A stretch of DNA of 64,000 bases from Escherichia phage AV111, in sequence record OR352941.1; one strand, given 5' to 3'. A model generated the notes under the pieces. The model was given only the letters and a program-made list of their open reading frames with translations. It was not told the DNA's origin and did not search any database. Made by a program: the position numbers and the translations under genes. Of the stretch, positions 53,224 through 63,828 are shown piece after piece. The stretch's first letter is position 1; every line of letters begins with the position of its first letter.

Positions 53224-53264
53224 ATAGTAACACACTCATTTGAAAGCGTAAACTGGTATAAATA
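53224..53264. promoter_or_regulatory. Back-to-back promoters: early-type for rnh (minus) and late TATAAATA for gene 34 (plus)
   Basis: Minus-sense GTTTAC-N18-TACTAT (53224-53253) and plus-strand TATAAATA at 53257-53264. Confidence 0.6.
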
Positions 53265-53294: not shown

Positions 53295-56200
53295 ATGGCC
53301 GACATCAAACGTAAGTTCAGAGCCGAAGACGGTCTGGACGCCGGTGGCGACAAGATTGTTAACGTAGCATTAGCCGACCGTACAGTAGGTACTGATGGCG
53401 TAAACGTTGACTTCCTGGTACAAGAAAACACCGTTCAAGTATATGATTCTACGCGTGGATATAACAAAGGATTTGTTGTTCTTTATGACAACCTTTTATA
53501 TCAAGCAATAAATGATATCGTGTCTCCTTCCGGGGCATTTAACCTTTTACAATGGCGTGCAGTTCGTACTGATGCACAATGGATAACTGTCGCTTCTGGG
53601 ACTTATCAACTTTCTTCAGGTGAATCGATTTCGGTTAACACTGGGGCCGGCAATGATATGGTTTTCACGTTGCCGAATACGCCGGTTGATGGCGATACTG
53701 TTGTTTTGGCTGATATTGGCGGAAGAACCGGGACAGTTAAAGTACAGATTAACGCGTCTGTGCAGAGTATTTTAAACTTTAGAGGTGAACAAGTTCGTAC
53801 AGTTTTAATGACGCGCCCACGTTCACAACTATTGTTTGTGTTTAGTAATCGTTTGTGGCAGATGTATATTACCGATTATGGTAAAGAATCAATCACTGTT
53901 ACACCAGCGTCACCATATCAAGCACAAGCAAATGATTTTATCGTTCGTCGTTTTACTAGTGCAGCACCAATCAACATTACACTTCCACGTAATGCTAACA
54001 ATGGTGATATAATCAGCCTAGTCGATTTAGATAAATTAAACCCACTGTATCATACAATTGTTAAAACATTTGATGATACAACGTCTATTGGTGAAGTCGG
54101 GACTCATATTGCCGAAGGCAGAAATGACTCTGACGCGTTTTTTGTTTTTGATGCTGCAAGTAGTTTATGGCGTATATGGGAAGGCGACCAGAAATCGCGT
54201 CTTCGTATTATCCGTGCGGATTCAAATATTCGTCCAAATGAAGAAGTTCTTATTTTTGGCACAAATAACGCTACAGCCGGAACTATTAATCTTACACTGC
54301 CTACCGGAATTTTGAGTGGTGACACTGTTAAAATTTCAATGAACTACATGCGTAAAGGCCAAACAGTAAAAATTAAAGCTGCCGAAGGTGATACAATTGC
54401 TTCTTCTGTTGCATTGCTTCAGTTCCCTAAACGTTCTGAATATCCACCTGATGCTCAATGGGTCTCTGTTACTGAACTAGAATTCAATGGCACTACTTCA
54501 TATGTTCCTGTATTAGAATTAGCGTATATCGAAGACACCGTTGCTGGTACAAGTTATTGGGTTGTTCAACAAAACGTCCCAACTGTAGAACGTGTCGATG
54601 CATCGAGCAATACAACTCGAGCTCGTTTAGGTGTTATTGCTCTTGCTTCTCAAGCGCAAGCAAATGTTGATTTAGAGAATACTCCAGCTAAAGAAGTGGC
54701 TATTACTCCTGAAACGTTGGCAAATCGTACAGCAACTGAATCTCGACGTGGTATCGCTAAAATTGCTACAACAGCACAAGTTAACCAGAATTCCACAGCA
54801 TCATTTGTGGACGATACTATTGTTACGCCTAAAAAACTAAATGAGCGTACAGCAACTGAAACTCGTCGCGGTCTTGCTGAAATTGCTACTCAGGCCGAAA
54901 CCGATGCTGGTCTTGATGACACAACGATTATTACACCTAAGAAATTGCAGGCACGTCAGGGCTCTGAAACACTATCTGGTATAGTTAAATATGTATCAAC
55001 TACTTCTGCTACTCCTGCTGAAACTCGTGGGGCCGCAGGCACTAACGTTTATAATAAAACCGTAAATAATTTAACTATTTCTCCTAAAGCCCTTGACCAA
55101 TATAAAGCAACTTATGCTCAACAAGGTGCAGTAATTTTAGCTGTTGATAGTGAAGTAATTGCTGGTCAATCCCAAGCAGGTTATTCTCACGCTGTAGTAA
55201 CTCCTGAAACACTACATAAGAAAACTTCTACTGATGGACGTATTGGTTTAATTGAAATTGCTACGCAAGCAGAAACTAATGCTGGGACTGATTATACACG
55301 TGCAGTAACGCCTAAGACGTTAAATGATAGGAAAGCTACGGAAGGATTATCCGGCATAGCCGAACTTGCTACGCAAGTTGAATTTGATACTGGAACTGAT
55401 GATACTCGTATCTCGACTCCACTGAAAATTAAAACTCATTTTGATTCTTCTGACCGTACCAGTGTTAATTCTGATTCCGGACTTATTGAAGAAGGAACCT
55501 TGTGGAACCATTATACTCTTGATATTTCTAAAGCAAATGAAACACAACGCGGTACACTTCGCGTAGCGACCCAGGCAGAATCTAATGCAGGAACTTTAGA
55601 TGATGTTCTTATTACTCCTAAAAAGCTTTTAGGGACTAAGTCCACTGAAACGTCTGAAGGTGTAATTAAGGTTGCTACTCAAGATGAAACTGTAACGGGA
55701 ACTTCCACTAATACTGCTGTATCTCCTAAGAATTTAAAATGGATTGTCCAGTCTGAACCAACATGGGCTGCTACTACAGCAATTCGCGGATTCGTTAAAA
55801 CTTCATCCGGTTCTATTACATTTGTTGGTAATGATACAGTTGGTTCAACACAACCTTTAGAATCATATGAAAAAAATAGCTATGCTATATCTCCATATGA
55901 ATTAAACCGTGTACTTGCTAACTATTTGCCATTAAAAGCAAAAGCTGCTGATAGTAATTTGTTAGATGGTCTAGATTCTCTTCAGTTCATCCGTAGAGAC
56001 ATCGACCAGACGGTTAATGGTTCTTTAAGTCTTACTAAACAGACCAACCTGAGTGCTCCTTTAGTATCTACAAGCACTGCTTCTTTTGGTTCCGAAGCAT
56101 CTGTTACTCGTAGATTAACTCTTAATGACTCTAGCGGTTCCGAAATAATTTTCACTAAAGGAACCCAATCTCTTAGTAATAAAGAGAATTTCGTTGTTAG

Positions 56201-57128
56201 AGCATGGGGTAATAGCGCTACAGATGGTGCCCGTGATACAGTATTTGAAGCGGGTGACGAAACCGGATACCATTTCTATTCTCAGCGCGCTGCTGATAAT
56301 AAAGTATCATTTAATATTAATGGAACACTTTATTCAACAGGTATTGTTTCTACAAATGGATTAAATGTTACGGGTGTTTCTACCTTTACCGGGCCTATTA
56401 GTGCTACAGGCGAAATTGTTTCTAGTTCTCCTATTGCATTCAGAGCTATTAACGGTAACTATGGTGTTATGCTTTATAACGCTGGTAACAGTTCTTATAT
56501 TGCATTAACTAACTCAGGTGACCAGACCGGGACGTTTAATAACTTACGCCCGATCACGATTAACAACGCCACAGGCTTAGTTCGTCTTGACAATGGTGTT
56601 CAAATCACAAGTGGTGCAACAATAACTACCGGCGGGTTAACTGTAAATAACAGAATTATTTCTAACGGCGTTAAAACTGCCACGGTTTATACCGATAAAC
56701 CAACAGCTTCTACTGTAGGTTTTTGGTCTATTGACATTAACGATTCTGCTGTATATAGCCAATTCCCTGGATACTGGACGCGTGATAACAAAGGTAACCG
56801 TGACCAAGAAATTAAATATCCTGGTACTTTGACTCAATTCGGCAATAGCTTAGATTCGCTTTATCAGGATTGGATTTGTTATCCTACGGGTGCAAATGGT
56901 GGTAGTATTCGTTATACTCGTACCTGGCAGAAAAATAAAGATGCTTGGACTTCATTTGCAATGGTATTTGATAGTGGCAACCCACCTTCACCTAGCGATG
57001 TCGGTGCTATCCCATCTGATAATGCTGTTATTGGAAACCTTACTATTCGAGACTTCTTACAATTAGGAAATGTGAGAATTGTTCCGGACCCGGTTAACAA
57101 AACAGTTAAATTTATATGGGTTGAATAA
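53295..57128 (+). CDS. 34: Long tail fiber proximal subunit gp34
   Basis: 1277 aa; MADIKRKFRAEDGLDAGGDKIVNVALADRTVGTDGVNVDFL...collinear with remembered T4 gp34 (1289 aa). Confidence 0.95.
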   Translation: MADIKRKFRAEDGLDAGGDKIVNVALADRTVGTDGVNVDFLVQENTVQVYDSTRGYNKGFVVLYDNLLYQAINDIVSPSGAFNLLQWRAVRTDAQWITVASGTYQLSSGESISVNTGAGNDMVFTLPNTPVDGDTVVLADIGGRTGTVKVQINASVQSILNFRGEQVRTVLMTRPRSQLLFVFSNRLWQMYITDYGKESITVTPASPYQAQANDFIVRRFTSAAPINITLPRNANNGDIISLVDLDKLNPLYHTIVKTFDDTTSIGEVGTHIAEGRNDSDAFFVFDAASSLWRIWEGDQKSRLRIIRADSNIRPNEEVLIFGTNNATAGTINLTLPTGILSGDTVKISMNYMRKGQTVKIKAAEGDTIASSVALLQFPKRSEYPPDAQWVSVTELEFNGTTSYVPVLELAYIEDTVAGTSYWVVQQNVPTVERVDASSNTTRARLGVIALASQAQANVDLENTPAKEVAITPETLANRTATESRRGIAKIATTAQVNQNSTASFVDDTIVTPKKLNERTATETRRGLAEIATQAETDAGLDDTTIITPKKLQARQGSETLSGIVKYVSTTSATPAETRGAAGTNVYNKTVNNLTISPKALDQYKATYAQQGAVILAVDSEVIAGQSQAGYSHAVVTPETLHKKTSTDGRIGLIEIATQAETNAGTDYTRAVTPKTLNDRKATEGLSGIAELATQVEFDTGTDDTRISTPLKIKTHFDSSDRTSVNSDSGLIEEGTLWNHYTLDISKANETQRGTLRVATQAESNAGTLDDVLITPKKLLGTKSTETSEGVIKVATQDETVTGTSTNTAVSPKNLKWIVQSEPTWAATTAIRGFVKTSSGSITFVGNDTVGSTQPLESYEKNSYAISPYELNRVLANYLPLKAKAADSNLLDGLDSLQFIRRDIDQTVNGSLSLTKQTNLSAPLVSTSTASFGSEASVTRRLTLNDSSGSEIIFTKGTQSLSNKENFVVRAWGNSATDGARDTVFEAGDETGYHFYSQRAADNKVSFNINGTLYSTGIVSTNGLNVTGVSTFTGPISATGEIVSSSPIAFRAINGNYGVMLYNAGNSSYIALTNSGDQTGTFNNLRPITINNATGLVRLDNGVQITSGATITTGGLTVNNRIISNGVKTATVYTDKPTASTVGFWSIDINDSAVYSQFPGYWTRDNKGNRDQEIKYPGTLTQFGNSLDSLYQDWICYPTGANGGSIRYTRTWQKNKDAWTSFAMVFDSGNPPSPSDVGAIPSDNAVIGNLTIRDFLQLGNVRIVPDPVNKTVKFIWVE

Positions 57129-57136
57129 GAGGTTAT

Positions 57137-58261
57137 ATGGAAAAATTTATGGCAAGGTTTGGACAGGGATACGTCCAAACGCCGTTTTTATCGGAAAGCA
57201 ATTCAGTTAGATTTAAGCTAAGTATAGCGGGTTCATGCCCGCTTTCAACAACTAATCCGTATATTTTGTTCCAAAACGAGCCTTTAGGGTTGCAGTCTTT
57301 TGGTATTGGACTAAATGTTAGGGTGATAAATCCGGAAAATGGAACTATAGTTGATAGTAAATTATACAATTTTGCGCCTACAAATAATGCAACTTCGGCC
57401 GCGTTTATTTCGTTTGTTAATACATACGCGGATAATTTCATTTTCGCATTTATTTCTAATAACAAATTTAATTTGCCGCCAGAAATAATTGAATGGTTTA
57501 AAGCTGCTGGGAGTTCAGTTATACCGTCAATTGAAGTTGCTAGTCTTGTTGATATTTCATATTCAGCGTTTTATGTTTCAGGTAAAAATACTATTGCATT
57601 AGAACACATAAAATACAGTAATAAGAAAACAATTTCTGATTACGCAACTCCATTAGATATTGTATATGACTCTATTGCTGATATAGGTGCTACCGGCTAT
57701 CCTAGACGTACATATGAAGCTCTAGAAACGTTTTTATCTCCTGTTGAAGGAACTAACAATGAAATAAAAAGGATGCCTACATCATCCCTTGTTACTCCTA
57801 TCGCAAACTATGGATTAAAGCCTACAGATTTTCTTTATTTGAAATTTCAATTAATGGCTGATGAAGAATTATTAGAGGAAGGAACCACAAGACTTTCAAT
57901 TCGTTTCTTTAAGTCTCCATCTAGCTCTCCTATATCATCTAAAGATATAAACTTTGATGGAACTGCCGGGGAGTGGAAGCTATATGAAGAATACGTTGAA
58001 ATACCAGCTGAAGCTGATGGCTTTACAGTATATTGTTACCGTACGGCCCCAGTCGGTCAAGGTGGACTAAGAAATGTTATTTTCACTGAAGTATCATGTA
58101 ACGGAAGTATAGCAAAACCAGCCGAGTTTGGTATAAACGGTATTCGTGCTAATTACATCGATGAATCATTAACCGGTAATGATATAATGGACTTGCCTAC
58201 TCAGTTATCTAACGACACAGGTAAGGTATTTGGGCAGGAATTTAAAGAGTACACAGAATAA
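57137..58261 (+). CDS. 35: Long tail fiber hinge connector gp35
   Basis: 374 aa (T4 372 aa); synteny. Confidence 0.85.
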   Translation: MEKFMARFGQGYVQTPFLSESNSVRFKLSIAGSCPLSTTNPYILFQNEPLGLQSFGIGLNVRVINPENGTIVDSKLYNFAPTNNATSAAFISFVNTYADNFIFAFISNNKFNLPPEIIEWFKAAGSSVIPSIEVASLVDISYSAFYVSGKNTIALEHIKYSNKKTISDYATPLDIVYDSIADIGATGYPRRTYEALETFLSPVEGTNNEIKRMPTSSLVTPIANYGLKPTDFLYLKFQLMADEELLEEGTTRLSIRFFKSPSSSPISSKDINFDGTAGEWKLYEEYVEIPAEADGFTVYCYRTAPVGQGGLRNVIFTEVSCNGSIAKPAEFGINGIRANYIDESLTGNDIMDLPTQLSNDTGKVFGQEFKEYTE

Positions 58262-58286: not shown

Positions 58287-58294
58287 TATAAATA
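58287..58294 (+). promoter_or_regulatory. T4 late promoter TATAAATA upstream of gene 36
   Basis: Exact TATAAATA 27 nt before the ATG. Confidence 0.7.
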
Positions 58295-58320: not shown

Positions 58321-58977
58321 ATGGCCGATTTAAAAGCCGGAAGTACAGTTGGTGGTTCCGTCATATGGCATCAAGGCAATTTTCCTTTAATGCCAGCTGG
58401 CGATGACATCCTATATAAAACATTTAAATTATACACCGAATATAACAAGCCAAAAGCGGCTGATAACGATTTCGTATCTAAAGCAAATGGTGGGACATAT
58501 CTCAAAAAGGTAATCTTTAACGAAGGTGTTGCAGTCAAAACAGCAGATGACCAAACGAATGGTATTTTTTCTGGTGGTGGTGACGCCGCGACATTTGACC
58601 AAACAAACATGGATATTGTTTCATGGTATGGTATTGGGTTTAAATCATCTCAAGGTACAGGTGAAAGAACTGTTGTAATTGATACTCGCACCGGTAATAT
58701 AAGTTCTAAAGGCGTTATTGAAGCATCTCAATTCAGAGCCACAACGTTAGCACCTTTAAATAATTACGACCTTACTCGCAAAGATTATGTTGATAGTCAA
58801 ATAAATACAGTTAATGCTAATGCAAACAGTCGTGTACTCCGTTCAGGAGATACGATGACCGGCGCGCTAACCGCCCCAAACTTTTTCTCACAGAATCCTG
58901 CATCTCAACCCTCGCATGTTCCACGATTTGACCAAATTGTTATTAAGGATTCTGTTCAAGATTTCGGCTATTATTAA
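58321..58977 (+). CDS. 36: Long tail fiber distal connector gp36
   Basis: 218 aa (T4 221 aa); synteny. Confidence 0.85.
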   Translation: MADLKAGSTVGGSVIWHQGNFPLMPAGDDILYKTFKLYTEYNKPKAADNDFVSKANGGTYLKKVIFNEGVAVKTADDQTNGIFSGGGDAATFDQTNMDIVSWYGIGFKSSQGTGERTVVIDTRTGNISSKGVIEASQFRATTLAPLNNYDLTRKDYVDSQINTVNANANSRVLRSGDTMTGALTAPNFFSQNPASQPSHVPRFDQIVIKDSVQDFGYY

Positions 58978-58985
58978 GAGGACTT

Positions 58986-61900
58986 ATGGCTACTTTAAAA
59001 CAAATACAATTTAAAAGAAGCAAAACTGCAGGAGCACGTCCTGCCGCTTCAGTATTAGCCGAAGGTGAATTGGCTATAAACTTAAAAGACCGTGTACTTT
59101 TTACTAAAGATGACCAAGGAAATATTATTGATCTGAGTTTTGCTAAAGGCGGTAGTATTGACGGGAATGTTATTCATACAGGTAATTATAACCAAACCGG
59201 CGATTATACTTTAAATGGCACCTTCACTCAGACAGGTAATTTTAATTTAACTGGTATTGCTCGAGTAACTCGTGATATTATTGCCGCTGGGCAGATTATG
59301 ACTGAAGGCGGTGAACTTATTACAAAAAGTTCAGGTACAGCACATGTTCGTTTTCATGATTCAGCTGACCGTGAACGTGGAATCATTTTTTCTCCTGCTA
59401 ATGACGGATTAACTACACAAGTTCTTAATATTAGAGTTCAAGATTACAAAGCCGGTTCAGAAAGCACTTTCGCTTTTAATGGAAATGGTTTGTTTTCTTC
59501 ACCAGAAGTTTTTGGGTGGAAATCTGTATCAACTCCGGTAATTTATACCAATAAAGTTATTACTAATAAAAAGGTTAAAGGTGATTATGACATCTATTCG
59601 TTGGCTGACAACACTCCTTTAACCGAAAGCGAAACAGCAATTAATCATCTTCGTGTCATGCGTAATGCAGTTGGTTCGGGTATTTTCCATGAAGTTAAAG
59701 ATAATGACGGTATCTCATGGTACGCTGGTGATGGGCTTGACGCATATCTTTGGTCGTTTACCTGGTCCGGTGGATTGAAAGCAGGCCATTCTATTTCTGT
59801 TGGTACTCCTGGTGGCAATAAAGGATACTCTGAATTAGGGACTGCTTCAATTTCTCTTGGTGATAATGATACTGGATTTAAATGGCATCAGGATGGATAT
59901 TTCCATACAGTAAACAACGGAACAAGAACTTTCATTTACGGTCCTGCGGAAACACAAAGCCTTAGAAAAATGGTTATGGGTTATTCTCCGGATGGTGTTC
60001 TTATGACAACGCCACCGACAGAAAACTATGCCCTGGCAACTGTAGTTACTTACCACGATAATAACGCGGTTGGAGATGGTCAAACTCTTTTAGGATATTA
60101 TCAAGGTGGAGCATACCACCACTATTTTCGTGGTAAAGGCACTACAAACATTAACACCGCGGGTGGTTTGTTAGTTACTCCAGCCAATATCGACGTGATT
60201 GGCGGTTTAATTAATATCGACGGTCGCAGTAATGCTTCAACCTTACTGTTTAGTAGCTATACGTCCGGTCAAAGCTCTGTCGATAATATGAATATACGCG
60301 TTTGGGGCGATACTTTTACTACTGTAGGTGGTACTCGCAAAAACGTAATGGAAATATCTGATGCCACTAGCTGGATGCAATATATTCAACGAACAACTGC
60401 AGGTAAAGTCGAATCGGTTCTAAACGGCACCCAGATTGTTAATGAAAACTTGACCGTAGTAAAAAATGCTACATTTGATGGTACAATCAGCGCAGCAGGT
60501 GAAATCGCAACAAATGCAGTAAATGGTCTTCGTATTTGGAACAACGATTACGCCGCTATTTTCCGTCGTTCAGAAGGAAGTCTTCATATTATTCCAACTG
60601 CCTTTGGCGAAGGCAAAAATGGTGATATCGGCCCACTTCGTCCATTTAGTTTGGCTTTAGATACTGGTAAAGTTACTATTCCAGATTTACAATCAAGTTA
60701 CAATACGTTCGCAGCAAACGGATATATTAAATTTACCGGTCACGGCGCTGGTGCAGGTGGTTATGCTATTCAGTATTCGCAAGCAGCTCCTATTTTCCAG
60801 GAAATTGATGATGACGCAGTAAGTAAATATTATCCTATTGTTAAACAAAAATTCTTACAAGGAAAGGCTGTTTGGTCTTTAGGTACTGAAATTAATTCTG
60901 GTACTTTTGTTTTGCATCATTTAAAAGAAGATGGAACTCAAGCTCATACCTCAAGATTTAATGCCGATGGTACAGTTAACTTCCCGGATAACGTCCAAGT
61001 TGGTGGTGGTGAAGCTACTATTGCTAAAAATGGCAATATTTTCTCTGATATTTGGAAAACATTTACTTCAGCTGGCGATGTAACTAATATTCGAGACGCT
61101 ATTGCTACCCGTGTTGCCAAAGAAGGTGATACGATGACCGGCCGCTTAACCCTTAAAACCAACTCAGATGCTGTTGTTATCGATTATCCGGCAGATGAAG
61201 CGGGTTATGTTAAGGGTAAAAAAGGTGGTGTTGATAACTGGTATGTAGGTAATGGTGGTGCTGATAACGGTTTAGCTTTCTGGAGCTTCCAATCCCAAGG
61301 TGGTATTAATATCAACCCGAACGGTGAAGTTATTCTGGCGCCGCAAGGTGTTGCAATAGTCAATATAAACCGCGACCGTATTCATATGAATGGTTCCAAC
61401 TGGATTGCACATAAATCTGGTGCATGGGGTGACCAATGGGGCTTAGAAGCACCTTATTTCCTTGATTTTGGTAGCGTTGGTGAAGATAGTTATTATCCTA
61501 TTATTAAAGGCCGTTCTGTAATTACCGGTCAAGGATATACTACTTCTGTTGACCTTGGTATTAGACGTACACCCCAACAATGGGGACAAGCTATAATTCG
61601 AGTAGGTAATGCTGAACGAGCTGACGGCCCTGTAGGTATTTTTGAATTCCATTCGTCTGGACTATTCTATAGCCCTACTATGGTTCAAACTCCGGCAATT
61701 GGTGTTGGTACTGTTAACGGATTAGGTGCTCCGAGTATTGCAATCGGTGATAATGACACTGGCTTATCACATGGCGGTGATGGTCGAGTTAATATGGTTG
61801 CTAACGGGATGCATATTGCATCTTGGTCTAGCTCTTACCATATCCATGAAGGTCTTTGGGATACCACTGGTGCTTTGTGGACCGAAACAGGAAGAGCTAT

Positions 61901-62306
61901 TATTTCTTTTGGTCATTTAGTCCAACAGAGTGATGCCTATTCCACATTTGTTCGAGATGTTTATGTCCGTTCTGATATTCGTGTTAAAAAAGACCTTGTT
62001 AAATTTGAAAATGCTTCTGAGAAGCTTTCTAAAATTAACGGTTACACTTATATGCAGAAACGTGGAACTGACGAAGAAGGTAATCAGAAATGGGAACCTA
62101 ACGCTGGTTTGATAGCTCAAGAAGTTCAAGCTATTTTACCGGAATTAGTTGAAGGCGACCCTGATGGTGAAGCTTTACTTCGTTTGAACTATAACGGTGT
62201 AATTGGTTTAAATACAGCTGCAATCAATGAACATACTGCAGAAATTGCAGAACTTAAGTCAGAGATTGAAGAGCTTAAAAAATTAGTTAAATCATTGTTA
62301 AAATAA
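58986..62306 (+). CDS. 37: Long tail fiber distal subunit gp37 with C-terminal S74-type intramolecular chaperone domain
   Basis: 1106 aa; N-terminus [34 protein letters not shown] as T4 gp37; C-terminal ~120 aa carry SDIRVKKDL...[15 protein letters not shown]...coiled coil. Confidence 0.93.
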
Positions 62307-62337
62307 TAAGAGGGGCTTAGGCCCCTTGGAGGTTTAT

Positions 62338-63132
62338 ATGGCAGTTGAAGGACCGTGGGTTGGATGGTCTGCGAGGGTACAAACTGGAGATCCTTGGATG
62401 GGTGGTGCTGCGCAGAGATTGAGAATGGGAATTCCGTTTTGGATGAGTAATATGATAGGTCGATCTGTTGAAATAATTCACACGCTTGGAGCAGACCATA
62501 ACTTCAATGGTCAATGGTTCCGAGATAGATGTTTTGAGGCAGGTAGTGCGCCTATAGTGTTTAATATTACAGGTGATTTAGTGTCTTATAACAGGGACGT
62601 CCCGTTATTCTTTATGAATGGAGATACGCCTAATGAATACGTTACTTTGAATATTCACGGCGGAGTTCACATGTGGGGCCGCGGTGGCCAAGGTGGTTGG
62701 ACACACTCAGGCGGTGACGGTAACGGGCAATGGGGCGGTGATTGTATTGTTAACCATATAGGCACCCGTTTACGTATATGGAACTACGGTGTTATCTGTG
62801 GCGGCGGTGGCGGCGGCGGTGGTATCGCTTATCGTCCTCACTCTGGTGCTAACTGGCAGGATATTGGCGGTGGCGGCGGAAGACCATTTGGCCCAGGAGG
62901 TGGAGGTGGCTATTCTGGTGGTGGAGCTTCTTATGAAGGCCCGGGTGGTGGATATAACTACGGTAACGCTCACTCTGGGCATGGTGGCGATGCAGGCGGC
63001 GCAGGTCAAAACGCCTGGCAAGATGGCGGGAAAGCGCTTAAAGTAGGAGCAGGTGGCGGTTCTGGTGCAGCTGTTGCAGTGTCATCCCCGATGTGGGGAG
63101 CAACAGGTACTATCTATGGCCCATGGCTATAA
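62338..63132 (+). CDS. 38: gp38 receptor-recognising adhesin, T2-type with glycine-rich motifs
   Basis: 264 aa from ATG after SD GGAGG (the ORF track starts at an upstream TTG); N-terminal gp37-attachment-like region then poly-Gly motifs ([18 protein letters not shown]). Confidence 0.85.
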
Positions 63133-63174: not shown

Positions 63175-63828
63175 ATGGAACCAAAAGTAGGATTTTCATT
63201 AACAGACCTACTTTTTGGACTTCTTGATAGAATTTTTAAAGATACTACTTCCGGGAAAGTAGTTTTTTCCCGGGTCCTAGTCGTAATATTATTGTTCTTT
63301 ATGACATTGATTTGGTATAAAGGCGAGTATATTCTAAACTTTTATAAAGAGACTACTTATGCCTCTTATACTGAAATGATTAGACAAGACCAGGACAATA
63401 GATTTAAAATTGCGGCTATCGAGCAGCTCCGAATAGTGCATTCTTCTTCAGGCGCAGACTTCACAGCGGTATATTCTTTTAGACCTACCAACATGAATTA
63501 TTTTGTGGATATGGTGGCTTATGAGGGTAAATTACCGGAAACGGTAGACGCAAAAAATACGGGAGGGTTTCCGATTGACAAAACGTCAGTAGAGTATATG
63601 GCAGGTGTTAACGGGAACTATTTTGAATCCACTACAGAAACTGTGTTCCTTCCTACAAAGAAGAAAACACAATTCACGTATATGTTTTCATGCCCGTTTT
63701 TTAATTTGGATAACGTCTACGCCGGCTCGATATCATTATACTGGTATGATATCAAACCGGATTTAGGATTTCCTAGACTTTCGTCTATGTGTGGTCAGGC
63801 CGGGAGGACATTAGGTCGAACTCGTTAA
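63175..63828 (+). CDS. t: Holin T
   Basis: 217 aa; ..DLLFGLLDRIFKD..GKV..SRV.VVILLF...periplasmic domain, matching remembered T4 holin (218 aa). Confidence 0.93.
   Translation: MEPKVGFSLTDLLFGLLDRIFKDTTSGKVVFSRVLVVILLFFMTLIWYKGEYILNFYKETTYASYTEMIRQDQDNRFKIAAIEQLRIVHSSSGADFTAVYSFRPTNMNYFVDMVAYEGKLPETVDAKNTGGFPIDKTSVEYMAGVNGNYFESTTETVFLPTKKKTQFTYMFSCPFFNLDNVYAGSISLYWYDIKPDLGFPRLSSMCGQAGRTLGRTR

Follow-up and report, generated by a model that had tools for sequence, protein, structure and literature searches.

Genes 37 and 38 of Escherichia phage AV111 and the T2/S16 type of long tail fibre tip

In phages T2 and T6, the C-terminus of the tail fibre protein gp37 is cleaved off, and gp38 then caps the fibre. 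The structurally resolved counterpart is the gp37-gp38 tip of phage S16 (PDB 6F45; Dunne et al. 2018); published descriptions of S16 place the cut at DLNVS^SDRRIKK (^ marks the bond), present release of the chaperone as the event that exposes the docking surface for gp38, and report that three conserved tryptophans of gp38 plug pockets on the gp37 base. According to the same authors' CASP13 account, models of this complex were poor. An interdigitated gp37 trimer and a polyglycine sandwich are ill suited to single-chain prediction. Cleavage of this kind is familiar from the endosialidase endoNF and from MyRF, in which the C-terminal helix forms the coiled coil that drives trimerisation, and in which Ser587 and Lys592 of MyRF are the equivalents of the catalytic dyad Ser911/Lys916 of endoNF. 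Phage T4 differs: the protein called gp38 there is a chaperone with no relation to the capping protein and does not enter the virion, and the T4 tip uses gp38 and gp57A as chaperones. The receptors differ as well, with T2 using FadL/OmpF, T6 using Tsx, S16 binding OmpC, and T4 recognising OmpC together with lipopolysaccharide (LPS).

The window analysed here is a stretch of 64,000 nucleotides from Escherichia phage AV111 (GenBank OR352941), a Mosigvirus and an already published coliphage. AV111 needs both OmpA and LPS, as it fails on ompA, waaC and waaR mutants, and its published host range is broad (46 ESBL/AmpC strains). Its genes 37 and 38 very probably encode a receptor-binding tip of the T2/S16 type, in which an S74-chaperoned gp37 is capped by a gp38 adhesin.

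Gene order and expression signals

In a protein look-up, gp37 and gp38 were exact matches to the two AV111 entries given in Table 1. Among the relatives, gp37 shares 82% identity with its counterpart from FL08 and 76% with that from AV119. Gene 38 follows 31 nt past the gene 37 stop; it is located directly 3' of the S74-bearing gene 37 and 5' of the holin gene t, the setting of a T2/S16-type adhesin, and the same order of the three genes is found in T2, T6, S16, RB69 and VR26. The start of gene 38 was set at the ATG backed by a GGAGG ribosome-binding site, and the TTG at 62326 of the mechanical open reading frame list was rejected.

Between the two genes lies a tetraloop hairpin, and the 46-nt intergenic stretch that contains it (62300-62345) folds with a calculated energy of -14.3 kcal/mol. 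RB69, LF82-1, FL08, AV119, VR26, T6, T2, S16 and T4 all have an equivalent hairpin between genes 37 and 38, with stems of other sequence. On the + strand of the region, the T4-type late promoter sequence TATAAATA occurs only at 53257, 58287 and 63149, and a scan of this strand found no copy between genes 37 and 38. The copy at 58287 probably drives a transcript of genes 36, 37 and 38, co-transcription being read from this spacing of promoter sequences. A scan for sigma-70 promoters gave no excess over shuffled sequences (22 found, 20 expected) and was disregarded.

Table 1. Features of the AV111 tail fibre tip locus (positions are those of the 64,000-nt window).
Feature	Position	Strand	Details
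Late promoter TATAAATA, T4 type	58287..58294	+	Upstream of gene 36
Gene 37, distal long tail fibre subunit precursor	58986..62306 (incl. stop)	+	Open reading frame, 1106 aa, WPK34197.1
DVYVR, aa 991-995	61956..61970	+	Predicted last strand of mature gp37; from alignment, with a docking role suggested by S16
SDIRVK	61971..61988	+	Predicted catalytic Ser996 (codon 61971-61973) and Lys1001 (codon 61986-61988)
Intramolecular chaperone / Peptidase_S74 domain, aa 996-1106	61971..62303	+	111 aa; Pfam PF13884, 6F45_A
C-terminal heptad-repeat helix, aa 1087-1106	62244..62303	+	Predicted trimeric coiled coil of the chaperone
Hairpin GAGGGGC-TTAG-GCCCCTT	62310..62327	+	Between gene 37 stop and gene 38 ribosome-binding site
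Shine-Dalgarno GGAGG of gene 38	62328..62332	+	Read from sequence; 5 nt upstream of ATG 62338
Gene 38, tail fibre adhesin	62338..63132 (incl. stop)	+	264 aa, WPK34198.1; Pfam GP38 and Gp38_N
gp38 N-terminal attachment domain, aa 1-40	62338..62457	+	Trp7, Trp20, Trp35; PF21721
Approximate recombination junction in gene 38, ~aa 82-108	62580..62660	+	Sliding DNA identity
gp38 specificity region, aa 112-246	62671..63075	+	Hypervariable loops in alternation with conserved glycine-rich motifs
Holin gene t	63175-63828		Downstream of gene 38

The chaperone domain of gp37 and its predicted cleavage site

An earlier note on this DNA had placed an S74-type chaperone of about 120 residues at the end of gp37, from nt 61900 onwards. 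Such a domain is indeed present, but its extent has to be corrected to 111 residues, starting at nt 61971. The Pfam model PF13884 matches residues 996-1055 with 48.6 bits (cut-off 22; E = 9.7e-13) over model positions 1-57 of 58; by its profile score this match is far beyond chance, and it begins exactly at Ser996, the first residue of the SDIRVKKDL segment that had been singled out before. The S16 gp37 chain of PDB entry 6F45 (chain A) aligns with residues 912-1106 at E = 9e-46, and with the S74 part alone at E = 1.2e-34. The domain forms the extreme C-terminus of the protein, and in the 28 PHROG tail fibre families that it matches, the match likewise lies at the extreme C-terminal end; the DNA that encodes it is 91-99% identical to that of RB69, FL08 and AV119 and contains no frameshift or truncation. 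A 15-residue motif quoted in the earlier note corresponds to residues 1041-1055 (nt 62106-62150). The terminal coiled coil of which it spoke was likewise located: the last 20 residues form three heptads with I1087, L1090, I1094, L1097, V1101 and L1104 in the a/d positions, a pattern from which the helix is predicted to be able to assemble into a trimeric coiled coil.

The claim that T4 gp37 lacks this domain also holds. Pfam detected no S74 match in T4 gp37 and instead found Collar and Phage_fiber matches, neither of which was found in AV111 gp37, and the BLASTP alignment of the two proteins ends at residue 645; a T4-type receptor-binding tip on AV111 gp37, homologous to residues ~800-1026 of T4 gp37, was rejected on these grounds.

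The SDIRVK segment aligns with ADLRAK of the MyRF chain 7dc3_A, with Ser996 and Lys1001 opposite MyRF position 587 (an alanine in the crystallised mutant) and Lys592. The motif S-D-x-R-x-K is common to the six homologues from T2, T6, VR26, AV119, FL08 and S16, in which the conserved surroundings of the predicted cut read (V/I)(R/S)^SDxRxK, and the DVYVR segment just before the cleavage site aligns with DLNVS of S16 and with DVYIR of fPS, T2, T6 and VR26. The scissile bond of AV111 gp37 is predicted to be that between Arg995 and Ser996 (DVYVR^SDIRVK), an assignment that we add here. By homology to S16 and T2/T6, gp37 would cleave itself after trimerisation. It should be kept in mind that the alignment reveals 12 residues, inserted a short way ahead of the cleavage site, that AV111 gp37 has and S16 gp37 lacks; with an arginine instead of the S16 serine in the P1 position, the local geometry of the two reaction centres is not identical. 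The residue that precedes the cleavage serine is an arginine in T2 and T6 gp37 as well.

The gp38 adhesin, its chimeric make-up and its receptor

Two Pfam models cover gp38, namely Gp38_N (PF21721; residues 1-40, 70 bits) and GP38 (PF05268; residues 45-264, 218 bits), both with cut-offs of 25. Over its full length the protein matches the S16 (6F45_D; E = 3e-48) and PP01 (9v85_A; E = 9e-63) adhesins, and it belongs with phrog_2056 (E = 1e-104). An alignment of seven adhesins, including that of S16, showed Trp7, Trp20 and Trp35 of the attachment domain to be invariant, as are the glycines at positions 114-119, 155-161, 177-181, 185/188, 203/205, 214-223 and 239-243. Glycine makes up 27% of gp38 overall and 37% of residues 112-264, with uninterrupted runs of eight (155-162), five (177-181) and again five residues (187-191); the first of these aligns with S16 151-GGGGGGGG-158. 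Full-length homology to 6F45_D and 9v85_A suggests that gp38 adopts the polyglycine-II sandwich fold. Its identity amounts to 43% with T2, 60% with T6, 49% with S16 and 84-87% with VR26, AV119 and FL08. The designation of gp38 as a T2-type adhesin with poly-glycine motifs is thus right with regard to the family, but the AV111 protein is a member of the Ox2/OmpA subtype.

Sliding comparisons of DNA identity revealed that gp38 is a natural chimera of an RB69/AV119-type attachment domain and a VR26/Ox2-type specificity domain, for which we add the evidence here. Upstream of the junction, gene 38 shares 95-98% identity with RB69/AV119 and 60-75% with VR26; on the downstream side it shares 83-92% with VR26 and 47-79% with the other sequences. 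At the protein level, the identity of residues 1-44 is 100% with AV119 and 52% with VR26; for residues 101-264 it is 92.7% with VR26 and about 80% with AV119/FL08. A tblastn search of the phage collection with gp38 ended at residue 176, as the low-complexity filter masks poly-glycine, and could therefore not rank the specificity domains; they were ranked by blastn on the 3' half of the gene and by our own alignments. A break at such a place is evidently tolerated, since an engineered gp38 chimera of T2 (residues 1-113) and PP01 is functional. The attachment domain of the AV111 adhesin fits the resident RB69-type gp37 tip.

Taken together, the tip could be assembled as follows. A gp37 precursor of 1106 residues would be made, in which residues 996-1106 serve as the chaperone; its C-terminal heptad helix would gather three chains and template the trimeric β-helical tip. 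Once the trimer is folded, Ser996, activated by Lys1001, would cut the bond to Arg995 and the chaperone would depart. The flat trimeric end thus exposed, formed by the DVYVR strands, would then be docked by a single gp38 through Trp7, Trp20 and Trp35. The glycine-rich motifs of gp38 would build a polyglycine-II sandwich displaying the hypervariable loops, which would bind the host outer membrane protein OmpA. For AV111, the cleavage, the 3:1 stoichiometry of gp37 and gp38, the docking mode and the fold are all carried over from S16, PP01 and T2.

Two other readings of this arrangement deserve mention. Gene 38 occupies the same position as gene 38 of T4, and its homologues in JS10, EcWhh-1, wV7, HY03 and UPEC07 are annotated as "distal long tail fiber assembly catalyst", so that gp38 might be thought of as a T4-type chaperone that aids folding of gp37 and does not enter the virion. 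Such labels, however, reflect gene position alone, as stated in the literature and in a note in the T4 record. T4 gp38 has no Pfam GP38 match and no similarity to AV111 gp38 (best BLASTP hit E = 1.2 over nine residues), and the AV111 protein matches over their full length the S16 and PP01 adhesins that were solved as receptor-binding proteins; the chaperone reading was rejected, and we consider this function vanishingly improbable. The view that gp38 is of the adhesin type, on which Pfam, PDB and PHROG agree, was also that of the earlier note. Alternatively, the S74-like domain might be a degenerate, non-cleaving remnant on mature gp37, with gp38 attached elsewhere, or might act as a trimerisation tag only. 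The P1 arginine and the upstream insertion, both departures from S16, would speak for this, but the catalytic serine and lysine and the domain as a whole are conserved and intact, the arginine is shared with T2 and T6, whose gp37 C-termini are reported to be cleaved, and in S16 the surface on which gp38 docks becomes accessible only once the chaperone has been released. In our view, a remnant is highly improbable, and an S74-chaperoned, self-cleaving gp37 capped by gp38 is the preferred reading.

As to the receptor, the published OmpA/LPS phenotype and the likeness to AV119 and FL08, the nearest characterised adhesins, both of them OmpA-dependent, support gp38 as the probable receptor determinant of AV111. 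This accords with the earlier expectation that specificity resides in gp38 and that the host range would be unlike that of T4 with its OmpC and LPS receptors. Binding of OmpA by gp38 alone leaves the need of AV111 for the LPS outer core unexplained. It may be that gp38 is not the sole determinant, and the LPS requirement may come from the gp12 short tail fibres, from the gp37 shaft, or from LPS truncation acting indirectly through the level of OmpA; we regard this as an open contender, with somewhat less than an even chance of being correct. It draws on the failure of AV111 on the waaC and waaR as well as the ompA mutants, and on reports that LPS composition can indirectly alter the outer membrane protein composition and that the OmpA-dependent phage RB32 is LPS-sensitive too. 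Against this, the loop aromatics Trp132, Trp148 and Tyr150 of gp38 could contact sugars themselves, and the present evidence locates no LPS-binding site. A contribution by several determinants complements the main explanation and does not exclude it.

Trp132, Trp148 and Tyr150 are additional aromatics in the AV111 loops when compared with AV119/FL08; these three and the C-terminal Trp263 are common to AV111 and VR26 and are missing from AV119 and FL08, which depend on OmpA only. One might speculate that the chimeric adhesin, through a sugar-contacting patch of these four residues, accounts for both the LPS outer-core dependence and the broad host range, although we consider this unlikely. In Ox2 host-range mutants, mutations in the hypervariable regions of gp38 changed receptor specificity; were the speculation true, the aromatic patch of AV111 gp38 would be their natural counterpart.

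Comparison with known systems

The tail fibre tip module of AV111 offers nothing new in kind: it is textbook knowledge for T2-type phages, and the gp38 type and the OmpA/LPS dependence of this phage have been published. The suggestion of novelty is the only weak point of the earlier note. For discovery the locus is of little consequence, as T-even phages have this tail fibre tip more often than any other, and both its structure and the chemistry of its cleavage have been worked out; what is new here is the assignment of the cleavage site and the evidence for the gp38 chimera. The predicted Arg995-Ser996 site and the junction in gp38 (~residues 82-108) mark points at which modules could be cut or swapped in the re-targeting of AV111-like therapeutic phages, and the chaperone domain and the gp38 attachment domain, co-inherited as a block, are the parts to keep together.

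T4 gp37 occupies the same locus and is homologous to AV111 gp37 over its N-terminal two-thirds (residues 1-645, 35% identity), but it ends in a Collar/fibre-repeat receptor-binding tip without S74. With the intramolecular chaperone (Peptidase_S74) domains of endoNF and MyRF, AV111 gp37 shares the C-terminal position and a Ser-Lys pair spaced i/i+5, together with a predicted coiled coil; dependence on a trimer and self-cleavage are expected by analogy. Sequence similarity to MyRF is distant (E ~0.01), and the face released by cleavage is predicted to be the docking site for a separate adhesin in AV111, in contrast to the tailspike end in endoNF.

In comparison with S16, the order of genes 37, 38 and t is the same, the SDxRxK and GLIAQEV motifs and the heptad tail of the chaperone all align, and the three gp38 tryptophans and all glycine-rich motifs are conserved. 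Identity in the gp37 tip is ~40%, and the two phages differ in their loops and in their receptors, S16 binding OmpC and AV111 needing OmpA. T2, T6, Ox2 and K3 (Henning group 1986-1989; Trojet et al. 2011) likewise possess a gp38 adhesin of ~260 residues that caps a cleaved gp37; in it, an attachment domain is combined with four hypervariable segments, which are set apart by five glycine-rich motifs. PF13884 is found in T2 gp37, too. The N-terminal gp38 subtype of AV111 is RB69/AV119-like and not T6/VR26-like.

The "type 1" Gp38 adhesins of the Tequatrovirus phages AV119 and FL08 (Lutz et al. 2025) are 84-86% identical to that of AV111 and are accompanied by a near-identical gp37 chaperone domain, and OmpA dependence has been shown experimentally in all three phages. 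They differ from the AV111 adhesin at Trp132, Trp148 and Tyr150 and in the C-terminal 20 residues. AV111 itself is a Mosigvirus, and its specificity domain is nearer to that of the Gaprivervirus VR26 than to those of AV119 and FL08.

Chaperone domain at the gp37 C-terminus

The distal long-tail-fibre subunit precursor (gp37) and the glycine-rich adhesin encoded downstream of it (gp38) are, by exact-sequence look-up, the Escherichia phage AV111 proteins WPK34197.1 and WPK34198.1, respectively. This phage is a Mosigvirus (GenBank OR352941; genome 172,602 bp), for whose isolation an ESBL strain of E. coli was used. The assignment suits the rest of the window as well, of which 20 kb are 98% identical to Mosigvirus genomes (e.g., JK45 and APCEc01). 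The earlier note had proposed that gp37 ends in an S74-type self-cleaving chaperone domain. The presence of such a domain is borne out by Pfam, since residues 996-1055 match Peptidase_S74 (PF13884, 'chaperone of endosialidase') with 48.6 bits (E = 9.7e-13; curated cut-off 22 bits), Ser996 occupying position 1 of the model. In a search of solved structures, residues 912-1106 were matched to the deposited S16 gp37 construct (6F45_A; E = 9e-46), an alignment that takes in SDxRxKKD, GLIAQEV..LP.LV and the helical tail.

On their own, the C-terminal 122 residues give weak matches to the self-cleaving domain of MyRF (7dc3, E = 0.011) and to a tail-fibre protein (8jov). Ser996 and Lys1001 (residues 12 and 17 of the query fragment) are aligned with ADLRAK of MyRF, whose S587/K592 form a catalytic Ser-Lys dyad equivalent to S911/K916 of the endosialidase endoNF; cleavage takes place only in the trimer. 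The motif (V/I)(R/S)|S-D-x-R-x-K is kept in all seven phages aligned (AV111, VR26, AV119, FL08, T6, T2, S16). The cut reported for S16 separates the two adjoining serines in DLNVS^SDRRIKK; through it, the last 113 residues are released and the docking surface for gp38 is exposed. By alignment, AV111 gp37 is predicted to be cut at DVYVR^SDIRVK (Arg995|Ser996), which would release 111 residues (nt 61971-62303). In the C-terminal 20 residues, the a and d positions of the heptads are occupied by I, L, I, L, V and L, a pattern that fits the coiled coil driving trimerisation in the Peptidase_S74 family. Matches to the domain occur in 28 different PHROG tail-fibre families, at the extreme C-terminal end, as expected of a mobile C-terminal folding module.

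Organization and mosaicism of the fibre locus

The T-even long-tail-fibre operon resides on the + strand of the window. For g38, the start TTG 62326 of the mechanical ORF list was rejected in favour of ATG 62338, which is preceded at 5 nt by GGAGG and yields the MAVEGPW... N-terminus common to AV119 gp38.

Long-tail-fibre genes (ORF listing) and segments of DNA identity at the tip
Feature	Coordinates	Strand	Remarks
Gene 34	53295-57128	+	
Gene 35 (hinge)	57137-58261	+	
Gene 36	58321-58977	+	
Gene 37	58986-62306	+	1106 aa
Gene 38	62338-63132	+	glycine-rich ORF; ATG start, corrected
Holin gene t	63175-63828	+	
Chaperone domain and first ~250 nt of g38	61900-62600		91-99% RB69/FL08; 71-98% LF82-1/AV119; 30-75% VR26
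Later part of g38	~62600 to g38 end		83-92% VR26 (Gaprivervirus); 47-79% others

On the + strand, genes 34, 36 and t are each closely preceded by a T4-type late promoter box (TATAAATA; 19 in the window versus 7.3 expected from shuffles), at 53257, 58287 and 63149, respectively. The same + strand search detected no TATAAATA box between g37 and g38, so that g36, g37 and g38 probably form a single late transcript. The stop codons of g37 and the ribosome-binding site of g38 are separated by a stable tetraloop hairpin (GAGGGGC-TTAG-GCCCCTT, 62310-62327); the intergenic stretch of 46 nt that includes it has a folding energy of -14.3 kcal/mol. Equivalent hairpins occupy the same place in RB69, LF82-1, FL08, AV119, VR26, T6, T2, S16 and even T4; most have a CTTCGG loop, with TTAG replacing TTCG in AV111, and their stem sequences differ yet still pair. 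They resemble the C(UUCG)G hairpins described for T4 intercistronic regions. A T-rich run follows the AV111 hairpin on the minus strand, and in this orientation the hairpin has a terminator-like score.

A search of phage records returned no match above ~91% to the g37-g38 tip, and sliding DNA identity revealed a patchwork. At the protein level, gp38 residues 1-44 share 100% identity with AV119 and 52% with VR26, in contrast to residues 101-264, which share 92.7% with VR26 and about 80% with AV119/FL08. The attachment domain hence travels with the gp37 end that it must fit, the 'lock-and-key' association described by Trojet et al., and the specificity domain has been exchanged at a junction near residues 82-108. 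A comparable junction is compatible with function in the engineered T2(1-113)-PP01 gp38 chimera. The exchange in AV111 is in line with the modular shuffling known for the tail-fibre locus and introduces no new principle. AV111 gp38 shares its 90%-identity cluster with a single further protein, of 264 aa, which comes from ENA metagenome assemblies and was seen on 2 contigs (up to 101,029 bp long), so that the chimeric adhesin has a close relative outside the isolate.

The gp37 shaft is likewise a patchwork by sliding DNA identity: 60336-60560 is 88-93% identical to the Tequatrovirus FL08 and only 51-57% to RB69/LF82-1/AV119, and 61086-61760 is 89-95% identical to LF82-1 and 55-78% to RB69/FL08. 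Residues 420-566 (60243-60683) resemble the trimerisation region at the C-terminus of gp34, the proximal fibre (PDB 4uxe of T4, E = 7.5e-13; Pfam Gp34_trimer 26.2 bits, just below the cut-off of 27), and T4, T2 and VR26 gp37 match Gp34_trimer as well. Residues 58-131 of gp35 match Pfam ILEI (PF15711, ILEI/PANDER-type domain; 30.2 bits, curated cut-off 27), as do gp35 of T4 (35.9 bits), RB69 (30.2 bits) and, weakly, S16 (19.1 bits).

The gp38 adhesin and its receptor

That gp38 is a T2-type glycine-rich adhesin with hypervariable segments, as had been claimed, is upheld by Pfam matches over its whole length (Gp38_N, residues 1-40, 70 bits; GP38, residues 45-264, 218 bits), by phrog_2056 ('tail fiber protein; host specificity'; E = 1e-104), by full-length alignment with S16 gp38 (6F45_D; E = 3e-48), and by the match of residues 37-262 to 9v85_A (E = 9e-63), the receptor-binding domain of PP01 gp38. 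In the same seven phages, including T2, T6 and S16, W7, W20 and W35 and the glycine motifs at 114-119, 155-161, 177-181, 203-205, 214-223 and 239-243 are invariant, and the segments separating these motifs are variable. These are the features described for the gp38 family, in which three tryptophans insert into pockets of the gp37 base, the glycine-rich motifs make a polyglycine-II sandwich, and host range is determined by distally located hypervariable loops. Glycine accounts for 27% of gp38 and for 37% of residues 112-264; the G8 run (155-162) aligns with S16 151-GGGGGGGG-158 (literature numbering). Domain identity and residue conservation are established here for both proteins. In many GenBank records, gp38 homologues are labelled 'distal long tail fiber assembly catalyst' or 'tail protein and peptidase'; these labels are misleading, being borrowed from the unrelated T4 gp38 or the neighbouring S74 domain.

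The AV111 paper grouped gp38 with the T2/T6 adhesins and found no plating on ECOR4 ompA, waaC and waaR mutants, i.e., dependence on OmpA and LPS. Since T4 uses OmpC and LPS (T2, OmpF and FadL; T6, Tsx), the prediction of a host range differing from T4 was correct and is already documented. The closest characterised adhesins, those of AV119 and FL08 (84-86% identical), are OmpA-dependent ('type 1'). Direct sugar contact by gp38 may underlie the LPS requirement, as is suggested by W132, W148 and Y150 in AV111 and VR26, where AV119 and FL08 carry Q, N and G; the requirement may instead come from another fibre, or it may arise indirectly, through changes that truncated LPS causes in the outer-membrane proteins.

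Proposed assembly of the tip and comparison with T4

The best-supported mechanism for the AV111 tip has five steps. The gp37 precursor would trimerise via its chaperone domain, the Ser996/Lys1001 dyad would cleave the Arg995-Ser996 bond, the chaperone would depart, W7, W20 and W35 would anchor one gp38 to the DVYVR face thereby exposed, and the hypervariable loops of this adhesin would bind OmpA. Cleavage, gp37:gp38 stoichiometry, docking mode and fold are proposed by analogy with S16, PP01, T2 and T6. The observation in the earlier note is confirmed and its interpretation supported. Tips of this type had been described before, as a class and in AV111 itself, whose OmpA/LPS dependence is published; the present analysis adds the mosaicism of g37-g38.

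T4 differs in both proteins, as had been stated for gp37. Its gp37 has Collar and Phage_fiber matches in Pfam and no S74 match, which T2 and VR26 gp37 do have, and it aligns by BLASTP with AV111 gp37 over residues 1-645 only; its gp38 is unrelated, with no detectable similarity to AV111 gp38 (best E = 1.2). According to the literature, T4 exchanged the ancestral tip for a lambda-like one that depends on gp38 and gp57 as chaperones.
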